IMG/VR virus record: IMGVR_UViG_3300010885_026047
Span: 49,640 to 113,639 of that record
Source of the DNA: a virus
Strand: one strand, 5' to 3'
Length of the DNA stretch: 64,000 nt
Part shown: positions 1 through 64,000 of the stretch, piece by piece
Position numbering within the stretch: the first letter of the stretch is position 1
How the letters are laid out: the number at the start of each line of letters is the position of its first letter
Notes under the pieces: generated by a model
Told to the model about the DNA's origin: nothing
Seen by the model: the letters and a program-made list of their open reading frames with translations, nothing else
Database searches by the model: none
Translations under genes and position numbers: made by a program

Positions 1-1346
1 GCACCATCAGTGTTAGCTGAGAGTACATCTATACCAGCATCACACATCCACTCTATCAGCATCAGTATCTCAAACTGGTTACCGATAGTACACTGAAAGT
101 GAACCCACGGGTCATACTGTACACTGTAAGTACTGTTGGTCATACCAAAACCACCACCGTTAACGGAGACTTTCAGTGTCTCGGCTATACCTTTGTACCG
201 GGCATCTGTCTTGCCTCTCTTCTTAGCATCTAACCGTTTCTCTATCAACCGTTTGTAGTTTACCAACCACTCTTTACCAAGATGTGCCGGATAGAGACCA
301 CGTTTTACGATACTTGACGGATACTGACTACCTGCATCAAACTCTATTAACTTGTAGCTATCTGTTGACTGTAGTAGTACTGCAGGGTTTTCTGTGTGTA
401 TACCACCTTTAGCTATCATATACTGCAGACCTTGGTACACAAACGGAAACTCCTGTTTTGCACCTCCCAGGTTCACTCTCTCCTGTTCTACCTGTTTACG
501 AATACTTTGCATCTCTGCAGACTTGAACCTAATATAACTGGGTATACAGTCCCCAAACGTAAACTCTTTCTTCTTCCGGCTCTTTTTAGCTGCATAGAGA
601 TCGTTCCAGTTCTTACCGGACTCTTTCATATACCCTAACAAGTTTACCTGTTCACCAAGCTTTACATCTGAGTAGCTGATAGCTTCTTTTGCCAGACCAA
701 ACTCTTCCATAGCGTCTAACCGTTCCTGTATCTTATCCTTACCTTTATACAGTTCGTTATCACAGTTACCCACTGTGTAGTTCCAAAGTGTCTCTGTTGC
801 TCTGATATCGTGCTCACAGTACTCTTGTACCATCTTACACTGTTCTTCAGTCAGATAAGGTTCTGTATGGTCAAACGGCATCTCATCTACTATCTGGTCA
901 GTCATAAACTCTATCCATTTCAAACTGGTCCGTTTGTTTTCGTTGAAAAAGTTGTGGATAGTTCCAAGGTCTATCTGAGCTATATCCATATACTTTTGGT
1001 TATATGGAGGCTTTATCTCATAGTCCTGGTTATTTATAATGTTTGACGCAAAACCAGCTATAAACCCAACTATCTCCATAGCAGAACAGTTACTCCATAC
1101 ATGAGCTGTATCTAACACGTACTGTATAACCTGGCCATCAAACGATATGTTGTTAAAACCACATATGTAGTCTTTTGGCATATCTACAAGCCACTTAACC
1201 AAACTGTCCAGTTCGTTCTTGTACTCGGATATCTCAAACCAGTACCACTCTTCTTTACCAACCTTCTTGAACCCGAAAAGGCTTACAGCTTGAAAGGTCT
1301 CGATGTCATATAAGAAGGTTCTATCTGCTATGTCTTTAGTCGTCAT
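1..1346 (-). CDS. polB: Family B DNA polymerase (crAss-like PolB), 5' part; runs off the left edge
   Basis: Absent from the ORF track because it is truncated. Hand translation from ATG at 1346 is open to the edge: ExoI YDIETF, ExoII GFNNISFD, ExoIII YCEHD, motif A DAGSQYPS, motif B K..VNGGGFG, motif C ANTDG. Confidence 0.93.
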   Translation of the reverse strand, partial: MTTKDIADRTFLYDIETFQAVSLFGFKKVGKEEWYWFEISEYKNELDSLVKWLVDMPKDYICGFNNISFDGQVIQYVLDTAHVWSNCSAMEIVGFIAGFASNIINNQDYEIKPPYNQKYMDIAQIDLGTIHNFFNENKRTSLKWIEFMTDQIVDEMPFDHTEPYLTEEQCKMVQEYCEHDIRATETLWNYTVGNCDNELYKGKDKIQERLDAMEEFGLAKEAISYSDVKLGEQVNLLGYMKESGKNWNDLYAAKKSRKKKEFTFGDCIPSYIRFKSAEMQSIRKQVEQERVNLGGAKQEFPFVYQGLQYMIAKGGIHTENPAVLLQSTDSYKLIEFDAGSQYPSSIVKRGLYPAHLGKEWLVNYKRLIEKRLDAKKRGKTDARYKGIAETLKVSVNGGGFGMTNSTYSVQYDPWVHFQCTIGNQFEILMLIEWMCDAGIDVLSANTDG

Positions 1347-1407
1347 ACCTCTTTAGCTTTTATATAGGTGCTGATAGGGTTTGTTTGTCCTACCAGCACC
1401 CTTTTTG

Positions 1408-1629
1408 TTAGTCTTGTTTCTTTTCTAACTTTCCCCACTTCTCCAGGTTATAATCTTTGTACTCCATAACTACCATCTTCCATACATCAGAGAACGTACC
1501 TATAACTATCCTTACGTTGACTGTTAGCTGTTCCCGTTCTGTGTCGTTTGAGAGCACATCCATCTCTCTGTACTCTGACCCGTATCTTGCTACTATCAGG
1601 TCTCCGGTCTTTAACTCGTTTAACTGCAT
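1408..1629 (-). CDS. Small hypothetical protein
   Basis: 73 aa ORF with A-rich leader, co-directional with its neighbours. Confidence 0.7.
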   Translation of the reverse strand: MQLNELKTGDLIVARYGSEYREMDVLSNDTEREQLTVNVRIVIGTFSDVWKMVVMEYKDYNLEKWGKLEKKQD

Positions 1630-1644
1630 CTTTCTGTTTGGTTT

Positions 1645-1860: not shown

Positions 1861-1929
1861 ATCTTCTTGTGTTTAAAGCTACACGGAGAGTACTTATCCC
1901 TCAAACATAGCTGGTTGTGAAAAGTACTT

Positions 1930-2283: not shown

Positions 2284-2323
2284 CGTTTGGTTGTTTTAGT
2301 TGTTTTGTGAACTGTTTGTTTGT

Positions 2324-3927: not shown

Positions 3928-3940
3928 AGTTTTGGTTGTT

Positions 3941-4246: not shown

Positions 4247-4277
4247 GTTTGGTTGTTTTGTATCGTTTAGTTTGTTG

Positions 4278-5008: not shown

Positions 5009-5012
5009 ACTT

Positions 5013-8087: not shown

Positions 8088-8759
8088 TTACGCTACAACA
8101 GGTGCTGCTGAAGTAACGGCTGGTGTAAACGCCTTGTTACGTGCAAACCATGCATCAGACAGCTGCTGTTTGTTGTCATGTGCTACATAGCTGTCCATAG
8201 CTTCGGGCTTATAAACACCGTTGTTGTTGGCAAAATGTGCCATAACCCTACGATATATCGGAGTTGCTACTGCCTCACCCTGGGCATTTGGTTCATACTT
8301 CAGCAACTGGATACCGTCTGGTGTCTTCTTCAGGTCACGACCTGGGTTAGTCTTGCTGAAAGGTATCGTACTTTCATGTACACATACCCGAACACGTTTA
8401 ACGGGTTCACCTACCTTAGCACCTAACAGTACCAAACGGGTTTCGATATCATCCCCGTCATCACCAAACACATTGGTATATACCGGAACAGGTTTCCCGC
8501 TGTCCGATAAATCCATAACACCAAGCCGCATAAATGCAACTTCTTTACCATTTGTACCCGGTTGGATACGTGCACCATTACCCTGTACTGGAGTCCATGC
8601 TCCTGAAGGGTCTTCCACAAACTCCGGTAACAGGATTACTGCACCGTCACCATACATAGCCGTCTTCTCTGCAAGATACCTGCGGATGGCTGAACGGTTA
8701 GCCTTTAACTGTGTGTCACTAAGTGACTGTCTTGCTGCAACATTAGCTGCTGTGCTCAT
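8088..8759 (-). CDS. Hypothetical early protein (possibly ssDNA-binding)
   Basis: 223 aa, beta-rich, own hairpin terminator; the function is a guess. Confidence 0.75.
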   Translation of the reverse strand: MSTAANVAARQSLSDTQLKANRSAIRRYLAEKTAMYGDGAVILLPEFVEDPSGAWTPVQGNGARIQPGTNGKEVAFMRLGVMDLSDSGKPVPVYTNVFGDDGDDIETRLVLLGAKVGEPVKRVRVCVHESTIPFSKTNPGRDLKKTPDGIQLLKYEPNAQGEAVATPIYRRVMAHFANNNGVYKPEAMDSYVAHDNKQQLSDAWFARNKAFTPAVTSAAPVVA

Positions 8760-8826
8760 AAGAATTGTTTTTAGTATAAAAGAAATGCCTACTCTGTTAC
8801 AGGTTTTCGGCTTACCCTGTTTATCT

Positions 8827-9171
8827 TTAACCAGCTATATGGGCTATCCAGTTATTGATGGCTCTGGACATGCTGATGTTATCAGTAGCCTTAGCTTGGA
8901 TTTCCTCTATGGACATAACTGTGACATCACCATATGTCTGGATGGAATTGTTCGGATTACTGGTATACACATCAACAATACCATTCTCACCATAGTACTC
9001 ATCACACAACTGTTGTACAACAAACTCATTGTTATATGTATAATACTGGATACTACCATAACACCTAAGGCATGTGAGGTAGATGTAACCGTCTGATGAT
9101 TTCTCTAACTGGTTACGTAGATTGGCTACAAGTGCTGAAGCCTTTTTATACTGCTGGATTAACTCTTTCAT
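8827..9171 (-). CDS. Hypothetical early protein
   Basis: 114 aa ORF. Confidence 0.75.
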   Translation of the reverse strand: MKELIQQYKKASALVANLRNQLEKSSDGYIYLTCLRCYGSIQYYTYNNEFVVQQLCDEYYGENGIVDVYTSNPNNSIQTYGDVTVMSIEEIQAKATDNISMSRAINNWIAHIAG

Positions 9172-9204
9172 TGCTGATATATATTTAGAAGATGAGGAAT
9201 AGAT

Positions 9205-9408
9205 TTAATGTGCTGCAAGCATTGCTATATCAGCATGGTGATTACACATGGCATAGCTACCAATATACTGTACTGCTGGATTAGGACAATCCATTTGGCA
9301 TTTGCATACAGGTATTGCCTCTGACCAGTCTAACAGGTTATCAGTAGACAGTTGTTCATTAGCCATTTGGCTCAATGTTTGCTTTTCAGATGAAGTGAAG
9401 CCTTCCAT
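9205..9408 (-). CDS. Small Cys/His zinc-finger-like protein
   Basis: CKCQMDCPNPA...MCNHH; first gene of the leftward operon. Confidence 0.65.
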   Translation of the reverse strand: MEGFTSSEKQTLSQMANEQLSTDNLLDWSEAIPVCKCQMDCPNPAVQYIGSYAMCNHHADIAMLAAH

Positions 9409-9443
9409 AAGTATTGTTTTTAAGATGTTAACAATGGTTTAAC

Positions 9444-9545
9444 TACCGGGGTTCCCCCGCTTTTGGTAAATGAACATGAAACGAGTAGGGTACTCCTAAC
9501 CACTCACGAACACAAACAAAAAATAGCCAGGAAGTTTTTGGGGAA
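9444..9545. promoter_or_regulatory. Strand-switch intergenic region with GC-rich triloop hairpin
   Basis: Genes diverge here; CGGGG-TTC-CCCCG at 9447-9459. Confidence 0.5.
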
Positions 9546-9586
9546 AAAGTTTTTATATGTGAACTCTGTTTGTATCTTTGTGTTAT

Positions 9587-9976
9587 ATGACTATAGATGA
9601 GAGGTTAGCTATACAGATAGAGTTACCGTTGTTTAGTCTGAAGTATGACAAGATAGCTGAACCTCTTATACATAGTTTAGAACTACATAGTACGTATCTG
9701 ATTTATGACTTTGAAGCTTACATGGATAAGTTCCCTGATGATGAAGATGAGTCTAAGGGATGGGTAGTACCAAAGGAGGGGGTTTATCAGAAGATACGTC
9801 TGCAGGTTAGAAAAGATCGTATCTGTTCCATGGAGAGTTCTTGGATAGAGGATAGTCAGATGTGGACACTTGTTATAACTTACCTATCTACAGACGAACA
9901 TATACGGATAAAGTTCAATACTGAGAAAGAGCTGAGAGAAGTGGAACTGAAACTATCAGAGTGGTTGTTTTCTTAG
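9587..9976 (+). CDS. Hypothetical protein
   Basis: ATG 9587 lies 6 nt after a TATCTTTG -7 box (9573-9580). Confidence 0.75.
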   Translation: MTIDERLAIQIELPLFSLKYDKIAEPLIHSLELHSTYLIYDFEAYMDKFPDDEDESKGWVVPKEGVYQKIRLQVRKDRICSMESSWIEDSQMWTLVITYLSTDEHIRIKFNTEKELREVELKLSEWLFS

Positions 9977-11274: not shown

Positions 11275-14200
11275 ATGTCTTTTCAACTGCTTGGTGTCTG
11301 GAACGCACAAACCAACTTGACCTCTACCGGTATACACCTTGCTGACGGTACTGGTACTACTGGAGACTGCTATACCTGCTGGACAAGTGGTACACAGAAC
11401 CTTGGACATGGGTTCTTTAACTATCAGCAAGGGCAAGTTATCTTATATACAAACGGTCAGTGGGTATGGCCTGGTTCTAACGGAGAGATAGACTTCTCTC
11501 TTATCTTTCCAACCTTTACTTTAGCCGGAACCTGGAACCCGAACACAAACACAACATCTCTTGGAACACATCTTACTGCAGGAGTTGGTACTGCTGGTAC
11601 TGTCTACACAGTTTCTACACCTGGTATCTGTGATCTTGGTTGGGGGCCTTTTAACTGGGCTACCGGGTTTAACGTTGTGTACAGTAACGGTAAGTGGTTG
11701 TGGATAGGTAAAGATCTTGTTTGTAACTATGGTAACACATCCGGTGGAACTGGTGGTGGGACCGGAACAGTTACTTACGTGAACATCCAAACATCTGGTT
11801 CTGGCCTATCTGTATCTGGTGGACCTGTAACATCTTCTGGAACTTTCCTACTGCAGAACACATTACCTGATCGTACTGTAGTACTCAACCAAGGTCCTGG
11901 TATATCTGTTACTGGTACTTACCCAAACTTTACAGTTTCTACTTCTGGTAGTACAAGCCAGACATCTGGTACTGTAACCTCTTTCAACACATCTGGTCTA
12001 TCCACACTCTTCACCACAAGTGTCAGTAACCCAACTACAACTCCATACCTTACCTTCTCACCTATAGCTGAGAACCAGAACTTGTTCTTTGCCAGTCCTA
12101 ATGGTTCTTCTGGCATACCCTTGTGGAGAGCTTTAACAGTCAACGACTTTAACAGTGGTACAAGTGCAAACGCTACAACTTTCTGGCGTGGGGACGGAAC
12201 CTGGGCAACTCCTTCCAGTACTACTTATACTGGTACATCAGGTGTAACTGTATCTGGTACATCCATCTACCTGGCACCTATAGCAGCTAACTCTGTACTA
12301 GCTAATGTTGGTTCCGGTTCAGGTTCGCCATTTAGTGCCCTGTCTTACTCTGCTGTAAGTGCTGTAAACAGTCTTGTATATAGAGACGCTAACCAAAATG
12401 CCTTTGCCAATAACTTTACATCTAAGGGAACTAATGTTGTATCTGCAGGAAGTACTACTATACTTACAGCAGCATCTACCCGGTTACAAAATCTCACAGG
12501 TTCAGCTAACCAGACATTTCAACTACCAGATGCAACAACACTGTCCATAGGGGCAAGGTTCACTTTCAACAATAACAGTACAGGTGTTCTAACAGTAACT
12601 AATAATGGAGGTATTACCATAGCGACTTGTCCTGCAGGAGGTGCTATAGAAGTTTTTGAGATAGCAGCATCTACACCAAATGGAGCATGGGACTATCACT
12701 TCTATATACCTGCCAATGTACAATGGGGTACAACTGCTCTTATCTATTCTGGTCCTATAACAGCTACAAAGTTTGTTACATCTGGAGGTACTTCCTCTCA
12801 GTTTGTAAAAGGGGATGGTACTCTTGACAGTACTATATATAGTACTACATCAGGTACAGTTACTTCTGTAAGTTTACTCTTACCAAGTTCTGTGTTCTCT
12901 ATATCCGGATCACCTGTTACTTCTTCAGGTACACTTACTGGAACACTTCAGACACAAACAGCAAACACTTTTTTTGCAGGACCTGTCAGTGGTTCTACAG
13001 CACAACCTACCTTTAGAGCTATAGTTGCTGGAGATCTTCCTTCCAGTACTGGAACAGTTGCCAGTTTCTCATCTGGTAATCTTGTACCTTTATTTACTAC
13101 AACTATAGCAAATCCTACTACAAACCCTGCACTTACTTTCAATCTTTCTTCTGCAGGAGCTAAGACTATCTTTGGTAACCAAACATCTGCCAGTACAACA
13201 CCTTCTTTCTTTATACCTATCTTAGCTGTGGGTCCTTTTGGTTCTGAAGGAGCAACAACGCAGGTACTACACGGTAATCCAAGTGGTAACCTATCTTGGT
13301 CCCAGGTCAACCTTGCTGCAGATGTTACTGGAAACTTACCTGTTACAAACCTTAACTCTGGCAGTAGTGCGGGAGCTACAACGTTCTGGAGAGGTGATGG
13401 TATATGGGCACAAACATCAGGTTCATCTATAACTCCTGGAGGATCATCTACACAGGTTCAGTATAACAATGCGGGTACTTTTGGAGGAGCTGCTCTAACT
13501 AACATTGCTACGGACGGCAATCTGTCCTTAGTTAGTACTTCCGGAGCTACAAATGCTATATCAGGATCACTAAAAGTATATAGTAATAACCAAACAGGAA
13601 TAGATGAGCTGCATGTAGTACCGTCTATAGGAATAGAAAGTATACTGCAAAACTCTTTAGGGCAAAATCAATGGGGTAGTTGGGATCTTAGTGGAGTAGT
13701 TACCACTGCTACACAAGGAGGTATATACAATCAGGCATTAGGATTTTCAGGAACACCAGTAGCTTCTACGAGAACTTATGATTCTACTAATCTTGTTCCT
13801 AATCATATGTACTTGAAATATCCTACGGGTTCAGGAAATAATTCTCAAGCAGAGTTATATTTTAGTTCTACTGCCAGGGCATCAATGATTGGTAATAATA
13901 CATATGGAGGTGGTTCAAAATGGGTTGGTAAATTTAACCTTCCACAATATACTTCTGCTAATAGAGTGTTTGTAGGATACGCATCTTCTGCTAGTGCATT
14001 AGGAACAACAGTTGACCCTTCCACATATACCAACATAATTGGTGTTGGTAAGGATGTTGCAGATACTACTTTACAGATAATGTTTAACGGTAGTGCAGGT
14101 ACAGCTACAAAAGTAAATACGGGAATAACACCAACTGCTAATGATGAATATAGAGTTACAATAATAATTTTACCTTCTGGTACAACATCCTATGTAACAC

Positions 14201-14367
14201 TAGAAAGATTTACAAAGTCAGCTGTGACAACATTTAGTTCATCAAACTCTGCTAAGATGCCGGCAGCAGGTACTCTAATGTACTTTCACATGGCTGTAAA
14301 TTCAGGTTCTGCATCTGTTGGTGTAACATCAATAGGTATTCTCCACATATTTGAAGAAATTTATTAA
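11275..14367 (+). CDS. Tail or head fibre-like structural protein (Ser/Thr/Gly-rich, modular)
   Basis: 1030 aa; repeated G.WN..TN and TTFWRGDG.WA units, SQFVKGDG and PGGSSTQVQYN fibre motifs; C-terminal beta-sandwich-like domain. Confidence 0.8.
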   Translation: MSFQLLGVWNAQTNLTSTGIHLADGTGTTGDCYTCWTSGTQNLGHGFFNYQQGQVILYTNGQWVWPGSNGEIDFSLIFPTFTLAGTWNPNTNTTSLGTHLTAGVGTAGTVYTVSTPGICDLGWGPFNWATGFNVVYSNGKWLWIGKDLVCNYGNTSGGTGGGTGTVTYVNIQTSGSGLSVSGGPVTSSGTFLLQNTLPDRTVVLNQGPGISVTGTYPNFTVSTSGSTSQTSGTVTSFNTSGLSTLFTTSVSNPTTTPYLTFSPIAENQNLFFASPNGSSGIPLWRALTVNDFNSGTSANATTFWRGDGTWATPSSTTYTGTSGVTVSGTSIYLAPIAANSVLANVGSGSGSPFSALSYSAVSAVNSLVYRDANQNAFANNFTSKGTNVVSAGSTTILTAASTRLQNLTGSANQTFQLPDATTLSIGARFTFNNNSTGVLTVTNNGGITIATCPAGGAIEVFEIAASTPNGAWDYHFYIPANVQWGTTALIYSGPITATKFVTSGGTSSQFVKGDGTLDSTIYSTTSGTVTSVSLLLPSSVFSISGSPVTSSGTLTGTLQTQTANTFFAGPVSGSTAQPTFRAIVAGDLPSSTGTVASFSSGNLVPLFTTTIANPTTNPALTFNLSSAGAKTIFGNQTSASTTPSFFIPILAVGPFGSEGATTQVLHGNPSGNLSWSQVNLAADVTGNLPVTNLNSGSSAGATTFWRGDGIWAQTSGSSITPGGSSTQVQYNNAGTFGGAALTNIATDGNLSLVSTSGATNAISGSLKVYSNNQTGIDELHVVPSIGIESILQNSLGQNQWGSWDLSGVVTTATQGGIYNQALGFSGTPVASTRTYDSTNLVPNHMYLKYPTGSGNNSQAELYFSSTARASMIGNNTYGGGSKWVGKFNLPQYTSANRVFVGYASSASALGTTVDPSTYTNIIGVGKDVADTTLQIMFNGSAGTATKVNTGITPTANDEYRVTIIILPSGTTSYVTLERFTKSAVTTFSSSNSAKMPAAGTLMYFHMAVNSGSASVGVTSIGILHIFEEIY

Positions 14368-14368
14368 T

Positions 14369-14656
14369 ATGCAAATACAAGCAATAGCACAAACCAATGA
14401 TCCCACAAAGATAGCTACCGAATTAGAGGTAACTACAAGAGATCCTACAGAGTTATCTATATACGCTGTCTGGAAGTTGACAGATGTTAATGGTGCTTAT
14501 GTAAATGACGGATCGTGTTTACTAACAGACGATGGCTCAGATCCAAACAATATTATAAATGACTACACAAAGTACTTATCGGATAACTCTTATTTATACA
14601 CTTATGTAGTAAACTTATTAGGATTAACAGTTGTAAGTTTCAATACTATTGTATAG
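14369..14656 (+). CDS. Small fibre-associated protein
   Basis: Directly follows the fibre gene and shares its atypical base composition. Confidence 0.65.
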   Translation: MQIQAIAQTNDPTKIATELEVTTRDPTELSIYAVWKLTDVNGAYVNDGSCLLTDDGSDPNNIINDYTKYLSDNSYLYTYVVNLLGLTVVSFNTIV

Positions 14657-14687
14657 ATTTGCATTGAACTAAACTAACAGTATAAAA

Positions 14688-15128
14688 ATGGCAAACGAAA
14701 AAGAACCACAGATGGACCCTTCGATGTTACCAGAAATATCGGATATCAGTAACTTCCAGGTATCGGGGCAGAGGACAGTTATCAAACCAACTAATGACTA
14801 TGCTATAAAGACCAAAGGTGGGGTGTACTTCCCGGAGAAGACTGCTGAACTAAGACGTAGGACAACACTCTCTAAAGGAGAAGTGATGTGTGTAGGCAGC
14901 GCAGTTACAGAGACAAAAGTTGGACAACATGTATACTTTTATTGGCATGAAGGAGATGGTATGATACGTGAGATCAACAAGACTGGTAAGACTACTGACG
15001 ATGATGTTATCTATGTGATACTACCAGAGTACTCTATACGCGGATATATAGTAGACAATGCTGTAGAACAAACTGCAAAAGAGCTTAGAGATAAGTTGGT
15101 ACAACCCTCTTCTATACTACTTGCATAA
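14688..15128 (+). CDS. groES: GroES/Cpn10-like co-chaperonin
   Basis: SGQRTVIKP...TKGGVYFPE...KGEVMCVG..V...KVGQHV. Confidence 0.8.
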   Translation: MANEKEPQMDPSMLPEISDISNFQVSGQRTVIKPTNDYAIKTKGGVYFPEKTAELRRRTTLSKGEVMCVGSAVTETKVGQHVYFYWHEGDGMIREINKTGKTTDDDVIYVILPEYSIRGYIVDNAVEQTAKELRDKLVQPSSILLA

Positions 15129-17657: not shown

Positions 17658-18475
17658 TGCTAAAGTTTCAAGAACAAAACCATCTATACTTTTCTCCTGA
17701 TCAACCAGACAGAAAGTGGACTTCTATCACTGCGATAGTTGGGATGTTGCATGAACCGTTTAAGAGAGAAGATACTGCTTGGAAGTGTGCTCTGAGAAAA
17801 CCTACAGACAAGTACCCGAACAAATGGTGGGGTATGACACAAGAACAGATACTTGCTGCTTGGGATGGAGAAGGTAAACGTAGCCAGGAACTCGGAAACT
17901 GGTATCACAACAAACGGGAAAGAGAACTTTGTGAGCCTGATAACCAGTTGATGTGGGGAGTAAGACCTCCAATAGTTGAAGATGGTATAAAGATATCCCG
18001 TGATCAGAAACTTGAAGATGGTATATACCCTGAACACTTAGTCTATCTTGACACTGCAGGTATCTGTGGACAGAGTGACTATGTTGAGGTTAAAGAACAC
18101 TCACTGAGGATACGAGACTACAAAACTTCCAAAGAGATCAAAAGAAAAGGTTTTGAGAGTAGTTGGTCTGGAGAGAAGATGATGACTGGTCCGGTAAAAC
18201 ATCTTGGAGACTGTGAGTACTGGCACTATGCTTTACAACTTTCTCTCTATGCTTACTGTATACAGAGACATAACCCAAGACTTACACATGTAGACTTAGC
18301 TGTAGAACATATAAAGTTTGTTTTGGAAGGAGAAGATAAGTTTGGCTATCCCATTGTTCTTAGACATATCAACGGAGACCCCGTAGTTAAAGAGATAGAA
18401 CTTGTCCAACTCCCATACTTACTGAAAGAGGTCAAAGCAGTTTTAGAGTGGCTTAAAACAAAACAAAAGGACTGA
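17657..18475 (+). CDS. PD-(D/E)XK (RecB/Cas4-like) exonuclease
   Basis: G...H, PEHLVY, GICGQSD, IRDYKT, YALQLSLYAY. Confidence 0.85.
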   Translation: MLKFQEQNHLYFSPDQPDRKWTSITAIVGMLHEPFKREDTAWKCALRKPTDKYPNKWWGMTQEQILAAWDGEGKRSQELGNWYHNKRERELCEPDNQLMWGVRPPIVEDGIKISRDQKLEDGIYPEHLVYLDTAGICGQSDYVEVKEHSLRIRDYKTSKEIKRKGFESSWSGEKMMTGPVKHLGDCEYWHYALQLSLYAYCIQRHNPRLTHVDLAVEHIKFVLEGEDKFGYPIVLRHINGDPVVKEIELVQLPYLLKEVKAVLEWLKTKQKD

Positions 18476-19587
18476 TGAGGATACAAGTAGTAGCAAGACA
18501 TAAGCAGGGTTGCGACTGGTTCAGATGTGTTCTACCAGCTATATATCTACAGAAAGATATAGAGTGGTGTAAGAACAACTCTATAGAGATGCTATGGATA
18601 GCTCACGATGAACTGAAGATAGACTGTGACATACTTATCTACAACAAACTTATAGCTACTACTATAGAACGTTTAAAGCACCTGAAGAAGAACGGCATGA
18701 AGATAGTGGTAGACGTAGACGATCACTGGATACTTCCTCCCGGACATGCTCACTACCAACAGTGGATGACTTGTACAGAACCAGGACAAACCAAGAGTAA
18801 CTCTGAACTAACTGAAGAACACATGAGACTGGCAGATGTAGTTACTTGCACATCTATGAGACTGCAGGAAGTTATCAGGAAGTTCAACAAGAACACAGTA
18901 GTTATACCAAACGCTCTCCCCTTCGGTCATGGGTTATACCAGCAGGGTATCAGGGAACCAAACGATAAGATGGTGTTTCTCTATGCCGGAGGGGTTAGTC
19001 ACTTACCTGATGTAGAACTACTAAAGGGGAAGTTTCAACGCATAGGCACTGACCCCTACTTAGTACAGAGAGCAGAGTTCGTACTTGCCGGATACGAGAA
19101 AGAGAAACAGAAGTTATACAAAACCAAACAGGACTACGAACAGAGAAATAGTAACTTTACAACCAAAGATATACATGGCCTCTATGACGATATGGTAAGT
19201 ATCTTTAAACAGACCAATAGTTACAAAGTTATAAATTCAGAACCTGTAAACAAGTATATAAGTTGTTATGATCAGGCAGATGTAGTACTTGCACCTCTGG
19301 TAGAAAACACCTGGAACTCGTTCAAGAGCAACTTAAAAGTTCTTGAAGCAAGCTCAAGAGAACTGCCGATCATATGTTCTGCAGTAGCTCCATATTCTGA
19401 CCTTAGACCTTGTGAAGGGATCATGTTTGTAGAAAAGTCATCTGACTGGATAGACTATATCAGAAAGTGTGTGAAAGAACCACAGTGGACAAAAGATATG
19501 GGTTTACAGTTAGCAAGTTGGATAAGAGAAGAGTACAACCTTGTAAGGTGGAACTTAGTAAGACAACAGTTATATAGTACTTTATAG
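18475..19587 (+). CDS. GT-B fold glycosyltransferase (GT4-like)
   Basis: G..WFR..LP, VVDVDDHW, VIPNA, ADVVLAPL.....N.FKSNLKVLEA...LPIICS. Confidence 0.85.
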   Translation: MRIQVVARHKQGCDWFRCVLPAIYLQKDIEWCKNNSIEMLWIAHDELKIDCDILIYNKLIATTIERLKHLKKNGMKIVVDVDDHWILPPGHAHYQQWMTCTEPGQTKSNSELTEEHMRLADVVTCTSMRLQEVIRKFNKNTVVIPNALPFGHGLYQQGIREPNDKMVFLYAGGVSHLPDVELLKGKFQRIGTDPYLVQRAEFVLAGYEKEKQKLYKTKQDYEQRNSNFTTKDIHGLYDDMVSIFKQTNSYKVINSEPVNKYISCYDQADVVLAPLVENTWNSFKSNLKVLEASSRELPIICSAVAPYSDLRPCEGIMFVEKSSDWIDYIRKCVKEPQWTKDMGLQLASWIREEYNLVRWNLVRQQLYSTL

Positions 19588-19588
19588 T

Positions 19589-19792
19589 ATGAACATGATA
19601 GCAAGATACAGACTAAGAGCAGCTATACAGTTCCATATCATCATGAGAGATAACGCTATCTATGCAACACATCATGGTATATGTATAGGTTCTCCAAGTC
19701 ACGATGTCTATGTTAAGATGCAAAGTGATACTGCAGAAAGAGAACAGAGATGTATAAACCGTATAGAGAAACTTTTAAAACGATATAAGTGA
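19589..19792 (+). CDS. Small hypothetical protein
   Basis: 67 aa in operon. Confidence 0.55.
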   Translation: MNMIARYRLRAAIQFHIIMRDNAIYATHHGICIGSPSHDVYVKMQSDTAEREQRCINRIEKLLKRYK

Positions 19793-20349
19793 TAAAACTG
19801 TTTGACATAAGTGGAGGTAAAGTGATCCCAAGTGAGCATGTGTATGTCATACCTCGGCTAAAGAAGATCATGGAACTATACCCAGATCAGTACCTGGAGA
19901 TATATAGTTACTTGTTCTACACTACATGTCCTGATAGTACTATGAACCCATATGTCAACCAACCTGAAGATATGAGAGAAGAGGTTATCATAGCAGACCT
20001 TGGACCATCTTTCTCTCTTGACGATAAGGTTATAGAAGAGACAAGAAAGTGGTGTGAGAAGATGTACGAGACACCTACACTACGATCCTGGAGAGGTGCC
20101 AAGAAGATGCTGGATAAGGTTGGTATATACCTGGCAGATAGCGAGATAACAGACGGTAAGGACACTAATGGTATGTTGATAGACAGGTTTATGAGCAAGC
20201 TTGGAGACTATCATGACATCTACAAGAAGATGGATAACGAAGTAAAAGAAGAACAAGCCAAAGTCCGAGGCAATGTAAAAATACCGTATTTCCAGCGACC
20301 AGGGTACATAGATAAAAAACAAGAAGACGATGATAACACTGAAGGATAA
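19789..20349 (+). CDS. Conserved crAss-like protein, candidate terminase small subunit
   Basis: MIKLFDI..GKVIPSEH...YETPTLR...KVRG resembles the gene I recall lying next to terL in crAss-like phages; the TerS role is inference. Confidence 0.55.
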   Translation: MIKLFDISGGKVIPSEHVYVIPRLKKIMELYPDQYLEIYSYLFYTTCPDSTMNPYVNQPEDMREEVIIADLGPSFSLDDKVIEETRKWCEKMYETPTLRSWRGAKKMLDKVGIYLADSEITDGKDTNGMLIDRFMSKLGDYHDIYKKMDNEVKEEQAKVRGNVKIPYFQRPGYIDKKQEDDDNTEG

Positions 20350-20378
20350 ACATCCCGTAACCGGAGAACAACTTGACG

Positions 20379-20966
20379 ATGAGTGAACCACTAGTAACTT
20401 TTATAGCTGTCTGTCACAACGAGGTAAGACATAACAGACCCTTCATAGACTCTATGCTCAGTCAGATAGACACTAACTGGAAAGCTATCGTATATCATAA
20501 TGGTCCAAACGAAAGGATGAAAGAATGGGTAGAGAGTTACCATGACGAAAGACTTATCTACATGGAGAGTGCTGTAGATGAAGGTAACTGGGGTACTGCT
20601 AACCGACAGAGAGCTATAGATACCTGTACCACATCTTATATAGTACAAACTTCTATACAAGACTACTGGCTACCCCAAGCCGTGAAGTATATCAACGAGA
20701 CTATAGTAAAACATGACCCGCAGATAATGGTATGGGATAGCATCAACCACTTAGTAGGACCTTGTCTGAAGTTGGATGGTCAACTTGCATGGAGTAAGTG
20801 TGACTGGGGTCAGTTTGCTTTAAAGACATGGATAGCTAAGAAGGTAGGTATAAAAAGAGGCGATGTGTATTGTGGAGACTGGGCTTTTGTAGAAGAGGTA
20901 CTGAAGTCAGGATATATAAGTAAACAACCTATAAAACTCGGAGCAATCCTGACATGTCATAACTAG
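20379..20966 (+). CDS. GT-A fold glycosyltransferase (GT2-like)
   Basis: LVTFI..., SMLSQ...W..IV, N.G..NR...I, GDW.F. Confidence 0.75.
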   Translation: MSEPLVTFIAVCHNEVRHNRPFIDSMLSQIDTNWKAIVYHNGPNERMKEWVESYHDERLIYMESAVDEGNWGTANRQRAIDTCTTSYIVQTSIQDYWLPQAVKYINETIVKHDPQIMVWDSINHLVGPCLKLDGQLAWSKCDWGQFALKTWIAKKVGIKRGDVYCGDWAFVEEVLKSGYISKQPIKLGAILTCHN

Positions 20967-20971
20967 AAACT

Positions 20972-21109
20972 ATGAAAGAAGTAGGAGATACTATAACTAT
21001 AAAAGCTGATGATGGAAGTCAGGAAACTGGAACTATCTATGCAATAGTTTCTGGACACTACTGGGTAAACTTTTCTTTTGGTTCACTTGCAATACGGATA
21101 GACTTATGA
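20972..21109 (+). CDS. 45-aa SH3/KOW-like small protein (not in ORF track)
   Basis: MKEVGDTITIKADDG..ETGTI...YWVNF..*; ATGA overlap with the next gene. Confidence 0.5.
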   Translation: MKEVGDTITIKADDGSQETGTIYAIVSGHYWVNFSFGSLAIRIDL

Positions 21110-21780
21110 AGAACATACCATGTATACTTATAAATCGTGACCGACTTTCTTGTACAGAGAAGTTAGTTGATCAGTTACTCTTACTAGGTTACACAAACTT
21201 GTATATCTTAGATATGGATAGTAGTTATCCGACTCTCCTGTCTTGGTACAAAGACAACAAAAACTTCACTCTTATACAGTCAGAGAACACCGGACACAAA
21301 ACTTTGTGGGAGAAAAACCTGTTACGTAACTTGTTTTCAGAACATGAGTGGGTTGCAGTTACAGACTCCGATATAGCTTTGTCTCCAGATACACCAAAAG
21401 GTTTTATAGAGCAGATGATAACTGTAGCTAAGGACTTCAGAACAGATAAAGTTGGTTTGGCTATAAAGTACAAAGACATAACAAACCCTCACTTGTTCAA
21501 GATCATAGAACCGATAGAGAGTAACTACTGGAAGAACAGGTTACCCCATCCAAGATATACTACATACTCGGCACCTGTAGACACCACTCTCTGTGTAGTG
21601 AGACCAAACAAACCTTTTCAGTACCAGGCTGTGAGGTTAGCTGACTGGTCTATACAACATCTTGACTGGTACATGGACTTTGAGAAGTTAACAGAAGAGC
21701 AGACTTACTACTTTGAACACGCAGATCCAAAGGTATCAACAACTAAACAACACTATCTGAAGTGGAAAAACAAGGGCTGA
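21106..21780 (+). CDS. GT-A fold glycosyltransferase (GT2-like)
   Basis: INRDR...LVD.L, ILD.DSSYP, VTDSD (DxD), APVDTT. Confidence 0.75.
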   Translation: MKNIPCILINRDRLSCTEKLVDQLLLLGYTNLYILDMDSSYPTLLSWYKDNKNFTLIQSENTGHKTLWEKNLLRNLFSEHEWVAVTDSDIALSPDTPKGFIEQMITVAKDFRTDKVGLAIKYKDITNPHLFKIIEPIESNYWKNRLPHPRYTTYSAPVDTTLCVVRPNKPFQYQAVRLADWSIQHLDWYMDFEKLTEEQTYYFEHADPKVSTTKQHYLKWKNKG

Positions 21781-22430
21781 TAGTCATCACGTATAGAGAT
21801 AGAGCAACACATCTATCTTGTTTGTTATCCCAGTTACAAAAGTACTGGCCTCAGTTCGATGTCTGTATCTGTGAGCAGTTGGATAGTTCCACATGGAACA
21901 AAGGTCTGTTGTACAACGTTGGGTTTAAAGAACTCGGTTATAAGTATGACTATCTGATACTACACGATGTAGACTTTATACCTGCATGGGATGAAGTAGA
22001 CTATAGCTTTACAGAAGTACCCTGTATGATAGCTGGAGCAGCTTCACAGTTTAACTATCAGTTACAGTTTCCTACTTTCTTTGGTGGAGTACTTACCTGC
22101 AGTAAAGAACACTACGAACTTGTGAACGGTTTCTCTAACCAGTTCAAAGGTTATGGGGGAGAGGACTGCAGTTTCAGAAACAGTTTTGTAGAGAAAGGTT
22201 TACAGCCAGGGGTTAAGATGGGAAGGTTTGAGTGTTTCGCACATCCTAAGCCAGACATATCCATAGGTAGTGAGTTCTGGAAGTCAGAAGACTACCAACA
22301 TAACTGGAAACTGGTACATCAACCAAGAGACTTTAACGAGGGGCTTTCAACAGTAAGTTACAAGCTAACGGAACAAACTATACAAAACAACATCACACAC
22401 TTATATATAGACACATGTCAAAGAACTTAG
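21762..22430 (+). CDS. GT7 beta-1,4-galactosyltransferase-like
   Basis: YRDR..HL, WNKGLLYNVGF, HDVD..P, FFGGV, NGFSN.F.GYGGED. Confidence 0.9.
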   Translation: MEKQGLIVITYRDRATHLSCLLSQLQKYWPQFDVCICEQLDSSTWNKGLLYNVGFKELGYKYDYLILHDVDFIPAWDEVDYSFTEVPCMIAGAASQFNYQLQFPTFFGGVLTCSKEHYELVNGFSNQFKGYGGEDCSFRNSFVEKGLQPGVKMGRFECFAHPKPDISIGSEFWKSEDYQHNWKLVHQPRDFNEGLSTVSYKLTEQTIQNNITHLYIDTCQRT

Positions 22431-23569
22431 GAGTTATCGGTATCGGCAAACTTGGACTATCTTTTGCACTACTTGCAGAAGAGTCAGGTTATACAGTTAT
22501 AGGTTGTGATAACCGACTGGACTATGTACACTCTTTGAACGAGAGAACTTACACTTGCTCAGAACCTTATATCAACCAGTATCTACAAACCTATCAGAGG
22601 TTTAGAGCAGAAGCTAACTTGTTCAATGTAGTAAACACCTGTGATATACTTTTCTGCTTTGTAGCCACACCTTCTTTACCTGATGGTTCTTATGACCACA
22701 GTGCTATAGAAAGTGTAGTAGCGGATATACAGAGACTTCACGTACAAGGTCTGCAGATGGACAACAAAGTACTGGTTATCGGTTGTACCACTATGCCGGG
22801 TTATACACAGACTGTAGCAGCTATGTTAGAGTCTACAGGTATGAAAGTAGCTTATAACCCGGAGTTTATAGCACAAGGTTCCATAGTAGACGGTTTGAGA
22901 AACGCAGATATGGTTCTGATGGGAGTGTCTGAAGACAGTACTTATCACTCCTTACAAGCTATCTATAGAACTATCATGACTAAAGAACCACTGATATCCA
23001 GGATGTCACCAACTGCTGCCGAGATAACCAAGATCTCCATCAACTGTTTTCTAACCATGAAGATAGCTTACGCAAACATGATAGGTGAGATAGCTATCAA
23101 CTCTAACTTAGAACCTGAAGTACCTACTATACTACAAGCTATAGGTTCAGATACACGGATAGGTTATAAGTATCTCAACTATGGTTTTGGATACGGTGGA
23201 CCATGTTTACCCAGAGACATGAGAGCTTTAGGTGTGTACATGGAAGATCTTGGTATCAAAGCACGTATACCTTCTGCAGTAGACAACACAAACGACTTTC
23301 ACTCTGAGTACCTGACACGATACTTTATAGCACAAAACCCAAACAAAGAAGTACCTTTCCAGTTCACACAACTTACCTACAAACGAGGTGTAGATATGTT
23401 AGTAGAGAGCCAACAGTACAAACTTTGTCTGAAGTTGTTACACATGGGATACTCAGTAGCTATAGACGAGAGCGATAACGTACTTATCCAAGTGAAACCG
23501 GAACTTGAACAGTACGGAGACAGAGTGATATATGGAGTAGTAGATAATGCATACAAGATAAGTATATGA
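22415..23569 (+). CDS. ugd: UDP-glucose/GDP-mannose 6-dehydrogenase
   Basis: GIGKLG Rossmann motif, V.TP, YNPEF, AE..K...N.FL..KI..AN, GYGGPCLPRD. Confidence 0.9.
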   Translation: MSKNLGVIGIGKLGLSFALLAEESGYTVIGCDNRLDYVHSLNERTYTCSEPYINQYLQTYQRFRAEANLFNVVNTCDILFCFVATPSLPDGSYDHSAIESVVADIQRLHVQGLQMDNKVLVIGCTTMPGYTQTVAAMLESTGMKVAYNPEFIAQGSIVDGLRNADMVLMGVSEDSTYHSLQAIYRTIMTKEPLISRMSPTAAEITKISINCFLTMKIAYANMIGEIAINSNLEPEVPTILQAIGSDTRIGYKYLNYGFGYGGPCLPRDMRALGVYMEDLGIKARIPSAVDNTNDFHSEYLTRYFIAQNPNKEVPFQFTQLTYKRGVDMLVESQQYKLCLKLLHMGYSVAIDESDNVLIQVKPELEQYGDRVIYGVVDNAYKISI

Positions 23570-23656
23570 TAGGATTTATTGCTACAAAGTACAATCTATA
23601 TGTGCTGAAACTACAGAGGAATTACAAACGAAAAATGAGACACAAACGACTGATAT

Positions 23657-24445: not shown

Positions 24446-24455
24446 TAAGGTTACT

Positions 24456-25163: not shown

Positions 25164-25172
25164 ACTACAAAA

Positions 25173-28734: not shown

Positions 28735-28743
28735 ACAAACTAT

Positions 28744-30701: not shown

Positions 30702-30704
30702 CTT

Positions 30705-41126: not shown

Positions 41127-41157
41127 TTGGAAAGATAACAGAAAGATGCTAACTTTG
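41127..41157 (+). promoter_or_regulatory. Bacteroidota-type promoter of the LAGLIDADG gene
   Basis: TTG-N20-TAACTTTG. Confidence 0.7.
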
Positions 41158-41178
41158 TTCAAACTAAAAACATTGAAC

Positions 41179-42096
41179 ATGGAAGAAGAAATAGTAAAGA
41201 AGCCAGTAAGTTCTCTAAAGAAGGTAAGCCAGGAAAGACGAGATAAAGTGATCGAACTACATGATGCCGGACACTCTCAAAACTATATCTCAACCGTACT
41301 ATCTATGACCTGCAGAACTGCTCAGGCTATCTTAGAAGCTAGTGGGAGAAAAAGAACGAGAAGTGAACAGAGTTACTTTCATCATAAAACATCTACACTA
41401 AAAGAAGATGCTTTTGATGTTATAGATACTGAAGAAAAAGCCTACTGGTTAGGTTTTATTTATGCTGATGGGTTTATAACTAACCCTAATGCCAAAAGTA
41501 GTAAAAAATATAATGTGGGCATACTTCTTAAAAAAGATGATATAGGACATTTGGAAAAGTTCAAACAGTTTTTAGATGCTCCTCAGAAGATAACACTTGG
41601 TACATCTACAATCAAGGGTATAGATAAGACTTACTATAACGCAAGGATAAACATAGGTTCTCAAAAGCTGCATAAAAAGTTGCAAAACTGGGGTATAACA
41701 TGGAACAAGAGTTATGATGCAAAACCTCCAGAGGAGATGAAGACTAACAGAGACTTCTGGAGAGGTGTAGTCGATGGCGATGGATACTTAGGTATAGTAA
41801 ACGATAAGAGTAGAGCGAAAGGGAGGAAGAGATTGCACTTATGTGGAACTATAGATATGGTACAAGGGTTTAAAGACTTTCTTGTAAGTAATGGTATAGG
41901 TACTACGTATGAAGTAGTTAGTGTAAGGGAGAGTATGCAGTATAAGATGGAAGTCAGTAGTACAATGGCTGAAAAGGCTGTAAAACTTCTTTATGAAGGG
42001 TCTACAGTTTACCTAGAGAGAAAATACCAACGCTATTTGGAGATCATAAAAGAAAACTCTAACTTTGAAACTCAAAAGGAACCATATGCCAGTTAA
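41179..42096 (+). mobile_element. Free-standing double-motif LAGLIDADG homing endonuclease with N-terminal HTH
   Basis: KAYWLGFIYADG and DFWRGVVDGDG, ending LY......LERKY. Confidence 0.85.
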
Positions 42097-61868: not shown

Positions 61869-62272
61869 TGACAGACATAAGACGTATACCCGGAACCGGA
61901 CTTACACCGGAGAAGATAGTAAGTACTTTGTTTAACTTTCACAACAAAGCGCACTTTTATCACTTACAGACAGATACTATAGGTAAGCACCTACTCTTAG
62001 ACGAGTTGTACAAAGCCCTGGTAGAGTTCAAAGATGAGATAGCAGAGTATCTGTTAGGAGTACAGGTTCCAAAACGTTTTGGACCTCTTACCATGGAACA
62101 GATACAACCTTATACAGATGCTAACATGTTAAGTTTTCTGAACGAAGGTTTTGACTTTTCTGTAGAACTCTGTGCTTATGCAGAGAAAAACAACGAAGAA
62201 GAGCTTTGTAACCTTAGTTCAGACTTACAAAAAGCGTTTAACAAAGCCAGACTTTTCACTACTTACAAGTAA
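61868..62272 (+). CDS. Ferritin/Dps-like protein (DUF5856-like)
   Basis: AHFYHLQT...KH..LDELY.....KDEIAE. Confidence 0.7.
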   Translation: MTDIRRIPGTGLTPEKIVSTLFNFHNKAHFYHLQTDTIGKHLLLDELYKALVEFKDEIAEYLLGVQVPKRFGPLTMEQIQPYTDANMLSFLNEGFDFSVELCAYAEKNNEEELCNLSSDLQKAFNKARLFTTYK

Positions 62273-62397
62273 AAACCTGTAACTTTGAAGATAGAGATAT
62301 GGTATATAGATCAAAGCAAGATAACTATAGAAGAAACTATAGATATCTGGTATGACTTACAACCGGATATGATGTTTTACGAAGAAGCTTATAACTG

Positions 62398-64000
62398 ATG
62401 AAGAAAAAGAACAGATATCAACAGGGTGGTTTATGGAACACTGATAAAAAGGGTTTCGTAGACAGTGTGTTTAACGCAAACAGTTCCAAGAACTTTGTAA
62501 AGCGTTATCAGAACCCTAGTGCTTATCCGGTTATAAACAACCCTGACGGAAGTTACTCTACACATCGGATGGCAAATGATGGAAATCGTGTATATCCTAC
62601 TATAGTACAAGATAAGTCTGGTAAGTTGATAAACTATGGAAACAACGATAATGCTTGGAACTACGCAGATAGCACTGGAGAGTACATAAACTTTGCAACT
62701 CCTGAACAAGCTAACTGGTTTGCTTCTTCTAAAGATAACACAAGTGGTTACAAGATGGGTACACAGAAGAAACAGCAGGGAGGATACGGTCCTCGAAAAG
62801 ATAAACAAAATATAATACCTGGACAACCTCCAGTACCAACTAGAAAAAATGGTGGTTGGTTAGATCAGTATCAAGATGGTGGACCTGTAGAGATGCAGAG
62901 TGGTGGCAGAGCACCTATCTATGTAACTGATCCGCATGATCCTAGGTTACAGGCATATCAGGATAGTCTATCTACTTACAATGCTATACCAGTCTTTAAT
63001 CAAGGGTTAAGAGACATTTTATCAAAGAATCCTTTTCCTGATGTATATAAGATAGAACTTAATGCTTTGATGGATAAAGTTCCGTATAATTCTGATCTTG
63101 TCAGAAGGGGAAATTGGATAGGAAAAACACAACAGGTAAATGGTTATCATCGTGATGTTTTTGAACAAATAGCTACTAATCCTGTACAACCAGTGGTATA
63201 TCAACCACAAAAACTTGTAAACAAACCAAAACCAAGACCAAAAACTCAAATACAATCACTATCTATATCAGACCCAAAACTATTACCTGTAACCAGACGA
63301 GAACCACAACCAGAACAAATCAATATCAATGATCTAAACCCAAATGAGGAACAATGGTTATTTCCACAGACTACTCCTTTCAGACCAGCAGGGTTCTACA
63401 AGAAGAGTATGATACCCGGAGGAGAACCAGTACCAACTAGAAAAAATGGTGGTTGGTTAGATCAATATCAGAAGGGAGGATATATACCAAAGGCTCAGTA
63501 TGGTAGGGCAACAGGAAGTCCTTCAATGGATAGTGTTCAACATCAAGCTGGTAATATGATGGATTTTGAATCCAGAAAAGGTTCTCCTGTAGGTACAGGA
63601 TTAAGTAACTGGGGCTATAATCAATCCCAAATGCCTTATAACCAAGTACCTTCTAATTGGACACAGCCTCAGACAAAAGACCAGGCTGTTGATTTGTACA
63701 TGAAGGAGATAGGCAATAGTGGTAAATTAGACTACTATCCATCAGCTATGGAAAAAGGAGAAGCTGGAGATTTCTTGTATAACACAGGGAGAGATCCAAG
63801 AGTATACATGCTTGATCAGTATCTAAAGTCTAAAGGACAAGCAGGTATTCCTAATAGAGGTTCTTATAATGTAGACACTAAGTCACCACAATGGACTTCT
63901 GATTTGCAAAACTCTTTAGACCAGCAATGGAATCAGCATCAAGGTGATATAATGAATTTGCCTACAAATAATAGAAGAATATTATTAAATAAAGGTAGAG
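62398..64000 (+). CDS. Modular virion cargo polyprotein with QxGG/KNGG linkers; runs off the right edge
   Basis: Not in ORF track. Open frame from ATG 62398: YQQGG, KQQGG, RKNGGWLDQYQDGG, MQSGG, RKNGGWLDQYQKGG, AQYG; last module has a lysozyme-like DFLYNTG. Confidence 0.8.
   Translation, partial: MKKKNRYQQGGLWNTDKKGFVDSVFNANSSKNFVKRYQNPSAYPVINNPDGSYSTHRMANDGNRVYPTIVQDKSGKLINYGNNDNAWNYADSTGEYINFATPEQANWFASSKDNTSGYKMGTQKKQQGGYGPRKDKQNIIPGQPPVPTRKNGGWLDQYQDGGPVEMQSGGRAPIYVTDPHDPRLQAYQDSLSTYNAIPVFNQGLRDILSKNPFPDVYKIELNALMDKVPYNSDLVRRGNWIGKTQQVNGYHRDVFEQIATNPVQPVVYQPQKLVNKPKPRPKTQIQSLSISDPKLLPVTRREPQPEQININDLNPNEEQWLFPQTTPFRPAGFYKKSMIPGGEPVPTRKNGGWLDQYQKGGYIPKAQYGRATGSPSMDSVQHQAGNMMDFESRKGSPVGTGLSNWGYNQSQMPYNQVPSNWTQPQTKDQAVDLYMKEIGNSGKLDYYPSAMEKGEAGDFLYNTGRDPRVYMLDQYLKSKGQAGIPNRGSYNVDTKSPQWTSDLQNSLDQQWNQHQGDIMNLPTNNRRILLNKGR
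62830..63470 (+). repeat. 38-bp perfect direct repeat (44 bp with one mismatch) flanking one polyprotein module
   Basis: CCAGTACCAACTAGAAAAAATGGTGGTTGGTTAGATCA at 62830-62867 and 63427-63464. Confidence 0.9.

Follow-up and report, generated by a model that had tools for sequence, protein, structure and literature searches.

Near-elimination of the trinucleotide AAT/ATT from the core genome of a predicted crAss-like lake phage

What could lead a phage to give up a trinucleotide made only of A and T, in its genes and between them alike? This question is raised by a stretch of 64,000 nucleotides (hereafter the window) that represents positions 49640-113639 of a single 113,639-bp virus record, IMG/VR IMGVR_UViG_3300010885_026047. 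A preliminary description, made from the letters of the window alone, had proposed that AAT and its complement ATT are avoided on both strands throughout the genome, as a rule of the DNA rather than of codon choice. Our analyses showed that the depletion is real, very strong, and statistically unassailable, that ~95% of AAT/ATT has been lost from the core genome, and that the loss is a property of the DNA and not of codons, proteins, or transcripts.

Depletion of AAT and ATT at the level of DNA

The window contains 597 copies of AAT plus ATT, against ~3400 expected from base composition. Sixty first-order Markov simulations of the window gave 2243 ± 48 copies (z = -34), and for the whole 113.6-kb genome, in which 1003 copies are present and ~6000 were expected, the ratio to the first-order Markov expectation was 0.25 (z = -44). 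Both words are affected: AAT occurs 388 times in the window (observed/expected ratio, o/e, 0.21 by base composition and 0.33 by first-order Markov) and ATT 209 times (0.13 and 0.19), and under either expectation these are the two lowest of the 64 trinucleotides. Most 1.5-kb segments hold 0-5 copies of each word where 25-55 would be expected. The remaining copies are concentrated in islands, which we defined as regions with at least five sites per 300 nt and which amount to ~31.5 kb (~28% of the genome); the remaining 82 kb we refer to as the backbone. The backbone has 228 sites versus 4262 expected (o/e 0.05), so that avoidance on both strands is stronger than had been stated. The four hand counts in the preliminary description were exact: one copy at 1-360 (15.6 expected from local composition), none at 29041-29400 (18.3), six at 39301-39900, these being six AAT, five of them AATG, and no ATT (26.3), and 19 at 13981-14340 (22.2).

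The same description had left the exact motif between AATH and AATG, and had allowed that a single 4-mer such as AATT might account for the whole effect. Across the backbone, o/e lies at 0.01-0.21 in all 16 NAATN contexts, lowest for AATT and highest for AATG/CATT. The effective word is AATH/DATT, and AATG/CATT is tolerated somewhat more. A single 4-mer or longer word was ruled out as the cause, as every NAATN context is depleted 5- to 100-fold and AATT shows no depletion beyond that predicted from its trimers (ratio 1.82). The words AAA, TTT, and TATA are still common (0.79, 1.00, and 1.58, respectively), as had been noted.

That the rule acts on DNA is indicated by the near-equal depletion of coding and non-coding backbone (o/e 0.052 and 0.063). 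Synonymous-codon shuffles, in which amino acids and codon usage were kept, predicted 5-6 times as many off-frame AAT/ATT as were observed when all open reading frames (ORFs) were considered (off-frame ratio 0.18), and 12-28 times as many as were observed in the 58 backbone ORFs. In the latter the four off-frame classes stood at 0.057, 0.082, 0.059, and 0.035 of the shuffled expectation, and the depletion spans all three frames and both orientations. The depletion thus survives controls for amino acids, codons, and dinucleotides, and codon-usage bias was rejected as its source since it outlasts the shuffling of codon order. Backbone ORFs do write Asn as AAC (95%; AAT 5%) and Ile as ATA (73%) or ATC (25%; ATT 2%), as the preliminary description had observed; in other NAY/NNY families 45-81% of codons end in T. 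Avoidance of an mRNA interferase (MazF/ToxN-type), which that description had also discounted, was rejected because sense AAT and sense ATT are both down 12-28 fold and non-coding DNA is depleted equally. Leaders of start codons are A-rich (45-60% A at -2 to -15); at position -1 the commonest base is instead T (48%, with A at 21%), a choice that avoids A-ATG.

Codon usage, an RNA-level effect, amino-acid content, or an artefact of assembly have, in our estimation, next to no chance of being the cause. In favour of such causes it can be said that residual sense-strand sites in backbone ORFs are somewhat more often AAT (78) than ATT (42). This ratio is close to the 1.55 expected from the excess of A over T, and therefore there is no marked strand asymmetry. 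Against them, the depletion persists off-frame, antisense, and in non-coding DNA, Asn and Ile have ordinary frequencies in the proteins, and the phage DNA is carried by independent freshwater metagenome contigs at an identity of at least 99%, with diverged forms (about 4-10%) in three lake-water metagenomes of other studies; no RNA data set was among the sequencing runs listed for it.

A mutational process confined to one context, as the preliminary description had also suggested, is disfavoured by the routes through which sites can be lost. Every AAT/ATT in a backbone ORF can be removed silently: in-frame AAT by T to C at its third position, xAA-Txx and xAT-Txx through the middle position, xxA-ATx and in-frame ATT through position 1 of AAT, and xxA-TTx through position 3. 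All six classes of frame and orientation are purged alike, and since this has happened through all three positions, a process acting on one base in one context cannot be the cause. Decay of a hypermutable motif, as with CpG, was rejected on the same ground and for the ordinary spectrum of differences between strains. It is the word as such that has been lost. The pattern speaks for selection, or else for a drive by repair or conversion in which the word would be recognised, and the depletion is most likely selective.

Islands and backbone

The preliminary description had called the avoidance genome-wide. It does continue through all 113,639 bp, and yet it is not uniform: islands, in which the density is normal or intermediate, take up ~28% of the genome and contain ~770 of the 1003 sites. 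Island densities are graded, from about 10 to 54 per kb. The islands comprise homing endonuclease genes, the C-terminal part of a tail protein, an FkbM methyltransferase, the C-terminal end of a giant ORF, the C-terminal part of the last ORF, and short patches in structural genes (Table 1).

Table 1. Features of the window and their AAT/ATT content (window coordinates).
Feature	Position	Strand	Observation
DNA polymerase gene, 3' part, family-B type	1-1346	-	Backbone; phrog_1252, E 1.9e-101; 3.9 AAT+ATT per kb vs ~54 expected
Near-normal-density island	8262-9711		ORF 8221-9096 without family match, plus 481-nt non-coding stretch with 23 sites
Tail protein gene, 1030 aa	11275-14367	+	N-terminal part purged; C-terminal part plus next small ORF (~12137-14961) is a normal-density island
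Glycosyltransferase/sugar-nucleotide/FkbM-methyltransferase cassette	18475-31853	+	Purged as backbone, 0.7-4.5 sites per kb, with two exceptions
NAD synthase gene in cassette	23657-24445	+	14 per kb
FkbM methyltransferase gene, 235 aa, in cassette	24456-25163	+	Island; 49 per kb
Large terminase gene (TerL)	32049-34304	+	Backbone; 1.3 sites per kb; query for collecting relatives
Portal gene	34990-37746	+	Site of 39 synonymous strain differences
Major head protein gene	39301-41040	+	Five of six survivors in first 600 nt are AATG
HNH endonuclease gene, directly 3' of head gene	41146-42096	+	Intermediate island; 13.7 per kb
AAT/ATT-rich ~360-nt segment	44886-45247	+	Polymorphic island; replaced elsewhere by 23-24 nt without AAT/ATT
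Last ORF	62398-64000	+	First ~550 nt purged; normal density from ~62950 (C-terminal part)

At least two islands vary between strains, and therefore the islands look like horizontally exchanged modules. The ~360-nt segment is replaced by its short alternative in some contigs of the lake metagenome X1 and in the lake strains X3 and X4, and the HNH gene lies outside the contig coverage of the other lake strains; the junction sequence of strains without this gene was not located downstream. The horizontally mobile modules are exempt from the purge or have not yet been purged. For the C-terminal domain of the tail protein, homologues of 50-60% identity were found in two unrelated large phages, in which AAT/ATT have an o/e of 1.07 and 1.19. 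No homologue above 50% identity was found for the FkbM methyltransferase island, and the C-terminal part of the last ORF had no relative among viral contigs.

Several other features of these regions were observed. There are four homing-type endonuclease genes, two HNH (one of them HNH-NUMOD4) and two GIY-YIG: that listed in Table 1 and those at L137:6706-7278, L137:10882-11916, and L137:15694-17265. All four are in AAT/ATT-rich or intermediate islands, and one GIY-YIG domain shares its ORF with a UDG-family domain. The 13-kb cassette directly upstream of TerL encodes glycosyltransferases of the GT1/4, GT2, GT7, GT11, and GT25 families, a UDP-glucose dehydrogenase, an NAD-dependent epimerase, the NAD synthase, and several FkbM/Methyltransf_24 methyltransferases; its part from 26001 to 30669 is outside the contig coverage of the lake strains X2-X4. 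Island genes at L137:12040-13560 and L137:14070-15200 (genome 32040-33560 and 34070-35200) have a skewed composition, with ~40% A in the sense strand, and in the genes at genome 32-35 kb sense TAA and TTT are low (e.g., on the + strand TTA 4 of 31 expected, AAA 0 of 10). A second purge at this position was not established, as the expectations are small (7-13) and the base skew is strong.

The phage, its lake strains, and its relatives

The record is classed as linear in IMG/VR, with a completeness of 88% as estimated by CheckV. Its last ORF runs off the end of the contig and has two copies of a peptide motif of ~15 residues (62838-62880 and 63430-63475), ~590 nt apart; as the contig stops inside this ORF, the genome is incomplete or permuted. 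We identified 115 ORFs of at least 80 aa (coding density 91%, table 11, i.e., the standard genetic code). The portal and major head proteins match PHROG families, the large terminase is 22-26% identical to named crAss-like terminases, and two giant ORFs of 4638 and 2144 aa are RNA-polymerase-sized, judged by size alone; related terminase, portal, and head proteins, giant ORFs, and the standard code are all as in crAss-like phages. Genes for replication and repair include those for RecA, a DnaB-like helicase, a DnaG-type zinc ribbon, RNase H, and a UDG-family domain. No integrase or tyrosine recombinase was found in the 113.6 kb, nor any tRNA gene, so that the ATA- and AAC-heavy codon usage is without compensation by phage tRNAs. 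Together, the absence of an integrase, the crAss-like gene set, and the occurrence in lake metagenomes point to a virulent, divergent crAss-like lake phage.

The diverged forms from the three other lake metagenomes, which we refer to as strains X2-X4, allowed the current state of the constraint to be assessed. The comparison covers 40 of 668 differences, and 39 synonymous differences in the portal gene separate the window from these strains. None of these 39 creates an AAT or ATT, where 7.0 would be expected if the same types of substitution were sampled randomly (probability of zero, 5e-5); 51% of the possible synonymous C to T changes in the portal gene would create one. Two of the 39 remove three of the six sites in the window's version of the gene. 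Substitutions in X2 are balanced and show nothing unusual in their spectrum (T>C 120, C>T 109, A>G 85, G>A 74). These data indicate that the constraint against AAT/ATT is enforced at present.

To place the purge among related phages, as the preliminary description had suggested, we drew on a large clade of TerL homologues (45-67% identity) found by protein search; a single-protein TerL scan of viral contigs and an alignment scan of genome contigs gave no relatives. From IMG/VR and JGI metagenomes 135 related loci were collected, with TerL 44-61% identical. None of the 135 is purged of AAT/ATT, and those of at least 6 kb have an o/e of 0.47-0.99 (median 0.81). Many of them have purges of their own, including L010, L018, L097, L101, and L128: CCG/CGG falls to 0.01 and TCG/CGA to 0.00, and GCG/CGC and GCC/GGC are also affected. 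The purge in L010 is again at the level of the trimer, with every CCGN/NCCG context low, YCGR absent (0/87, 0/25, and 0/74), and ACGT and GCGC at expectation. Trimer purges with other words are thus common in this clade. AAT/ATT consists of A and T only, unlike the words of the relatives (CCG, TCG, GCG), and therefore has no link to CpG or to cytosine methylation.

In a quick TerL tree the purges track clades, and one subclade, in which G+C has risen to 0.46-0.48, no longer shows the CCG purge. The phage studied here is on a long branch beside L002, which is not purged of AAT/ATT. Its small subclade has a common GCG/CGC purge (0.09-0.38), so the AAT purge is younger and private, and it is specific to this lineage. 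In the phage itself GCG/CGC is the object of a second, weaker genome-wide purge (backbone o/e 0.15; CGCG 3 of 186 expected, GCGC 10 of 186). Palindromes are avoided too (CTAG 0.26-0.29, GAGCTC 1 of 12, CTTAAG 1 of 12, GGTACC 3 of 26, CAGCTG 4 of 30), and they make up four of the five hexamers with the strongest depletion. A separate observation on the terminases is that those of several relatives (P0002, P0027, P0028, P0040, P0111; 1065-1139 aa) are ~350 aa longer and have Hom_end/intein-type domains (PF05204, PF05203, PF14528), that is, inteins.

We also considered whether the scarcity is shared by bacterial chromosomes. In 77 chromosomal loci, mostly of Flavobacteriales and reached through homologues of the NAD synthase, AAT/ATT has an o/e of 0.82-1.40. 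The depletion is not shared by them, and scarcity of AAT/ATT is no general feature of base composition in the phylum to which the host probably belongs. The NAD synthase homologues (48-56% identical, in Flavobacteriales and archaea) were rejected as a host marker; they did not identify the host, and the loci serve as compositional background only.

Which activity may read the word

The genes of the phage give some indication of how it copes with DNA-reading activities. Searches of the 113.6 kb (88% complete) found neither a DNA methyltransferase of the N6/N4, Dam-type, N6_Mtase, or C5 families nor a hydroxymethylase of the thymidylate-synthase type. The ~70 ORFs scanned, in a genome where many ORFs have no family, included no recognisable restriction-like nuclease; the nucleases seen were the homing-type HNH and GIY-YIG enzymes, a RecB/Cas4-like PD-(D/E)XK exonuclease, a DUF3799 protein, and RNase H. 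As no methyltransferase was detected in it and it avoids palindromes, the phage evidently relies on keeping its DNA free of target sites, the classical way in which virulent phages counter restriction (PMC6286503).

Several known phenomena resemble the purge in part. CpG decay and the very-short-patch repair that shapes CTAG and CCWGG in E. coli and other enterobacteria likewise cause a genome-wide, frame- and strand-independent loss of a short word. These processes change one defined base, whereas here three positions serve as escape routes and neutral-looking differences between strains fail to create the word. We know of no cognate enzyme for AAT. Chloroviruses protect their own DNA by cognate methyltransferases and not by word avoidance; unlike them, this phage has no detected nickase or DNA methyltransferase. 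Frequent nickases are encoded by viruses, such as the chlorovirus Nt.CviPII (CCD) and Nt.CviQII (RAG) (PMC3017599), and by phages, such as the HNH enzymes N.phiGamma (CG/GT) and N.BceSVIII (S/RT) (PMC3592412). Their effective specificity of 2-3 bp is the class implied by the AAT purge, and none of these enzymes reads AAT. Restriction-site avoidance, in the part of Rusinov et al. (2018, PMC6286503) used here, concerns mostly the sites of orthodox Type II systems. The purge is like it in that silent changes have made the word rare in both strands of a non-temperate phage that lacks a methyltransferase of its own and avoids classical 4-6-bp palindromes too. It is unlike it in that Type II sites, as that part of the source describes them, are 4-8 bp, mostly palindromic, and few in copy, and the word here is 3 bp, A/T-only, and non-palindromic, with ~6000 copies expected and hundreds persisting. 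In depletion of CRISPR protospacer-adjacent motifs (PAMs), as treated in the portion of PMC12174588 used here, a motif of 2-3 nt is likewise selected against on both strands; the shifts reported there are weak, whereas here the loss is ~20-fold and uniform over coding and non-coding DNA. The CCG, TCG, and GCG purges of the relatives share with it the near-elimination of one trinucleotide pair by silent changes, in a clade-specific manner. In kind, the purge is an extreme variant of motif avoidance, and it is explained by no described system.

The preliminary description had concluded that an undescribed short-motif system was at work. A reader of a 3-mer is consistent with our data. A hard double-strand cutter is hard to reconcile with the island sites, the ~70 ORFs scanned gave no candidate gene, and none of the agents that it listed (a host nuclease or toxin, a PAM, or a phage nuclease telling self from non-self) is singled out as responsible. 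The explanation that we favour, tentatively and with rather less than even confidence, is that the core genome is under continuing purifying selection against AAT/ATT and that the reader of the word is a defence of the host, which is probably one of the Bacteroidota. The selecting agent would be a DNA-reading activity with an effective specificity of ~3 bp, whose cost would rise with the number or local density of sites, so that a single site would not be lethal. A frequent nickase, a DNA-modifying toxin, or a restriction-like complex needing several sites would be candidates. Some 770 sites persist in the islands, and an enzyme of host or phage that cut at each of them would still be lethal. 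The cost would therefore have to add up over sites or act locally, as that of nicks, adducts, or bound protein would. Given large phage populations a small cost per site would be enough, and the phage would escape by removing the word, as it does with classical restriction palindromes. That the agent would be a host defence is the least certain step. The general habit of avoidance speaks for a host factor, as does the loss of the CCG purge with a shift in G+C, which looks more like a change of host.

A number of points weigh against this explanation. Among bacterial restriction and defence systems we know of none whose site is a fully specified, A/T-only 3-mer. The sites in the islands mean that tolerance to local clusters must be added as an assumption. 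The phages with the related tail domain are unpurged and the word was evidently not avoided in the genomes from which the islands came, which fits a cause intrinsic to the phage at least as well. Finally, restriction systems vary between strains, and strong purges of one word that persist throughout entire phage clades are not typical of them.

A cause intrinsic to the phage, which we regard as unlikely, would be a factor of its own directed at host DNA rich in AAT, either a frequent nickase or nuclease or a DNA-binding shut-off protein. It would serve to salvage nucleotides or to shut off the host, and would spare the phage genome, which lacks the word. Functional parallels are the frequent cutters of chloroviruses, where self is methylated, and T4 Alc, where self is told by base modification. 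Such a factor would suit a purge that is private to its lineage within a group whose other words are inherited along phage clades, the lack of a methyltransferase that could protect self otherwise, and, as noted above, the unpurged state of island donors and of phages with the related tail domain. AAT is also among the most frequent targets possible in host DNA of ~60% A+T, and viral nickases with 2-3-bp sites are documented (PMC3017599, PMC3592412). Set against this, no candidate gene was found among the ~70 ORFs scanned, the homing-type nucleases are themselves in AAT-rich islands, a true cutter would also attack the islands of the phage itself, and the disappearance of the CCG purge from the G+C-shifted subclade looks more like a host change. 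We give a lower probability, and consider it improbable, to a word-directed bias of mutation or repair, in which strands or alleles with AAT/ATT are lost to nick-directed or mismatch-specific repair, or to biased gene conversion, faster than the word arises, and the islands are young. The equal depletion of coding and non-coding DNA is in keeping with such a bias, as are the graded densities of the islands, which resemble amelioration over time, and the presence in the phage of RecA, a UDG-family glycosylase, and several nicking-type homing endonucleases. Yet a deaminase-like process acting on a single base at a single position cannot clear the six classes, the spectrum of strain substitutions is balanced and ordinary, and to hold a 20-fold depletion at equilibrium the drive would have to be both very strong and specific to the word; we know of no enzyme that would supply it.

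Two further possibilities fare worse. The word might be the minimal crossover or insertion core of a recombinase or mobile element, with copies in essential DNA selected against. An additive, local cost per site would fit purged essential DNA beside unpurged accessory modules; this is nonetheless very improbable, as no attC-like hairpin family was found in the window and no tyrosine recombinase in the genome, the non-coding backbone is purged as strongly as genes, and the words of the relatives (CCG, TCG, GCG) would need equally many cores. Alternatively, AAT or ATT might be the PAM of a host CRISPR-Cas system, so that the phage reduces its usable protospacers. PAMs span 2-5 nt and are read on either strand, and their under-representation in phages is on record in the part of PMC12174588 that we draw on. 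The depletion reported in that part is a lower-than-expected frequency and not near-elimination; moreover, the benefit from losing one of thousands of PAMs is very small, and hundreds of sites are left in the islands, which makes avoidance of a PAM a most implausible cause. Other candidates were set aside: promoter or terminator signals, as the word is missing from the non-coding backbone too; a Type III-like orientation bias, as residual sites are split only 65:35 between orientations; UV or A-tract effects, as AAA, TTT, and TATA are not depleted; and primase recognition trinucleotides, whose avoidance would bring no benefit, and minor-groove alkylators, which have no sequence support.

Returning to the selection that we favour, and leaving the owner of the reader aside, we consider it quite possible, if short of an even chance, that an undescribed activity of freshwater Bacteroidota hosts or of the phage reads only AAT/ATT, with AATH preferred, and that it is one of a wider class of three-base readers (of CCG, TCG, GCG, and others) that purge related lake and marine crAss-like phages, with a cost that scales with density rather than an enzyme that cuts every site. 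Word avoidance records what cells or phages read on DNA, and here a ~20-fold purge of an A/T-only trinucleotide has been kept across lakes and is explained by no known restriction, CRISPR, or toxin system. The phage genome provides a natural AAT-free substrate together with built-in controls in the form of its AAT-rich islands. Should the reader prove to be an enzyme, it would represent a new class of specificity and possibly a tool for frequent cutting or nicking, and it would have a bearing on the prediction of hosts from k-mers and on the ecology of phages and their hosts in lakes.

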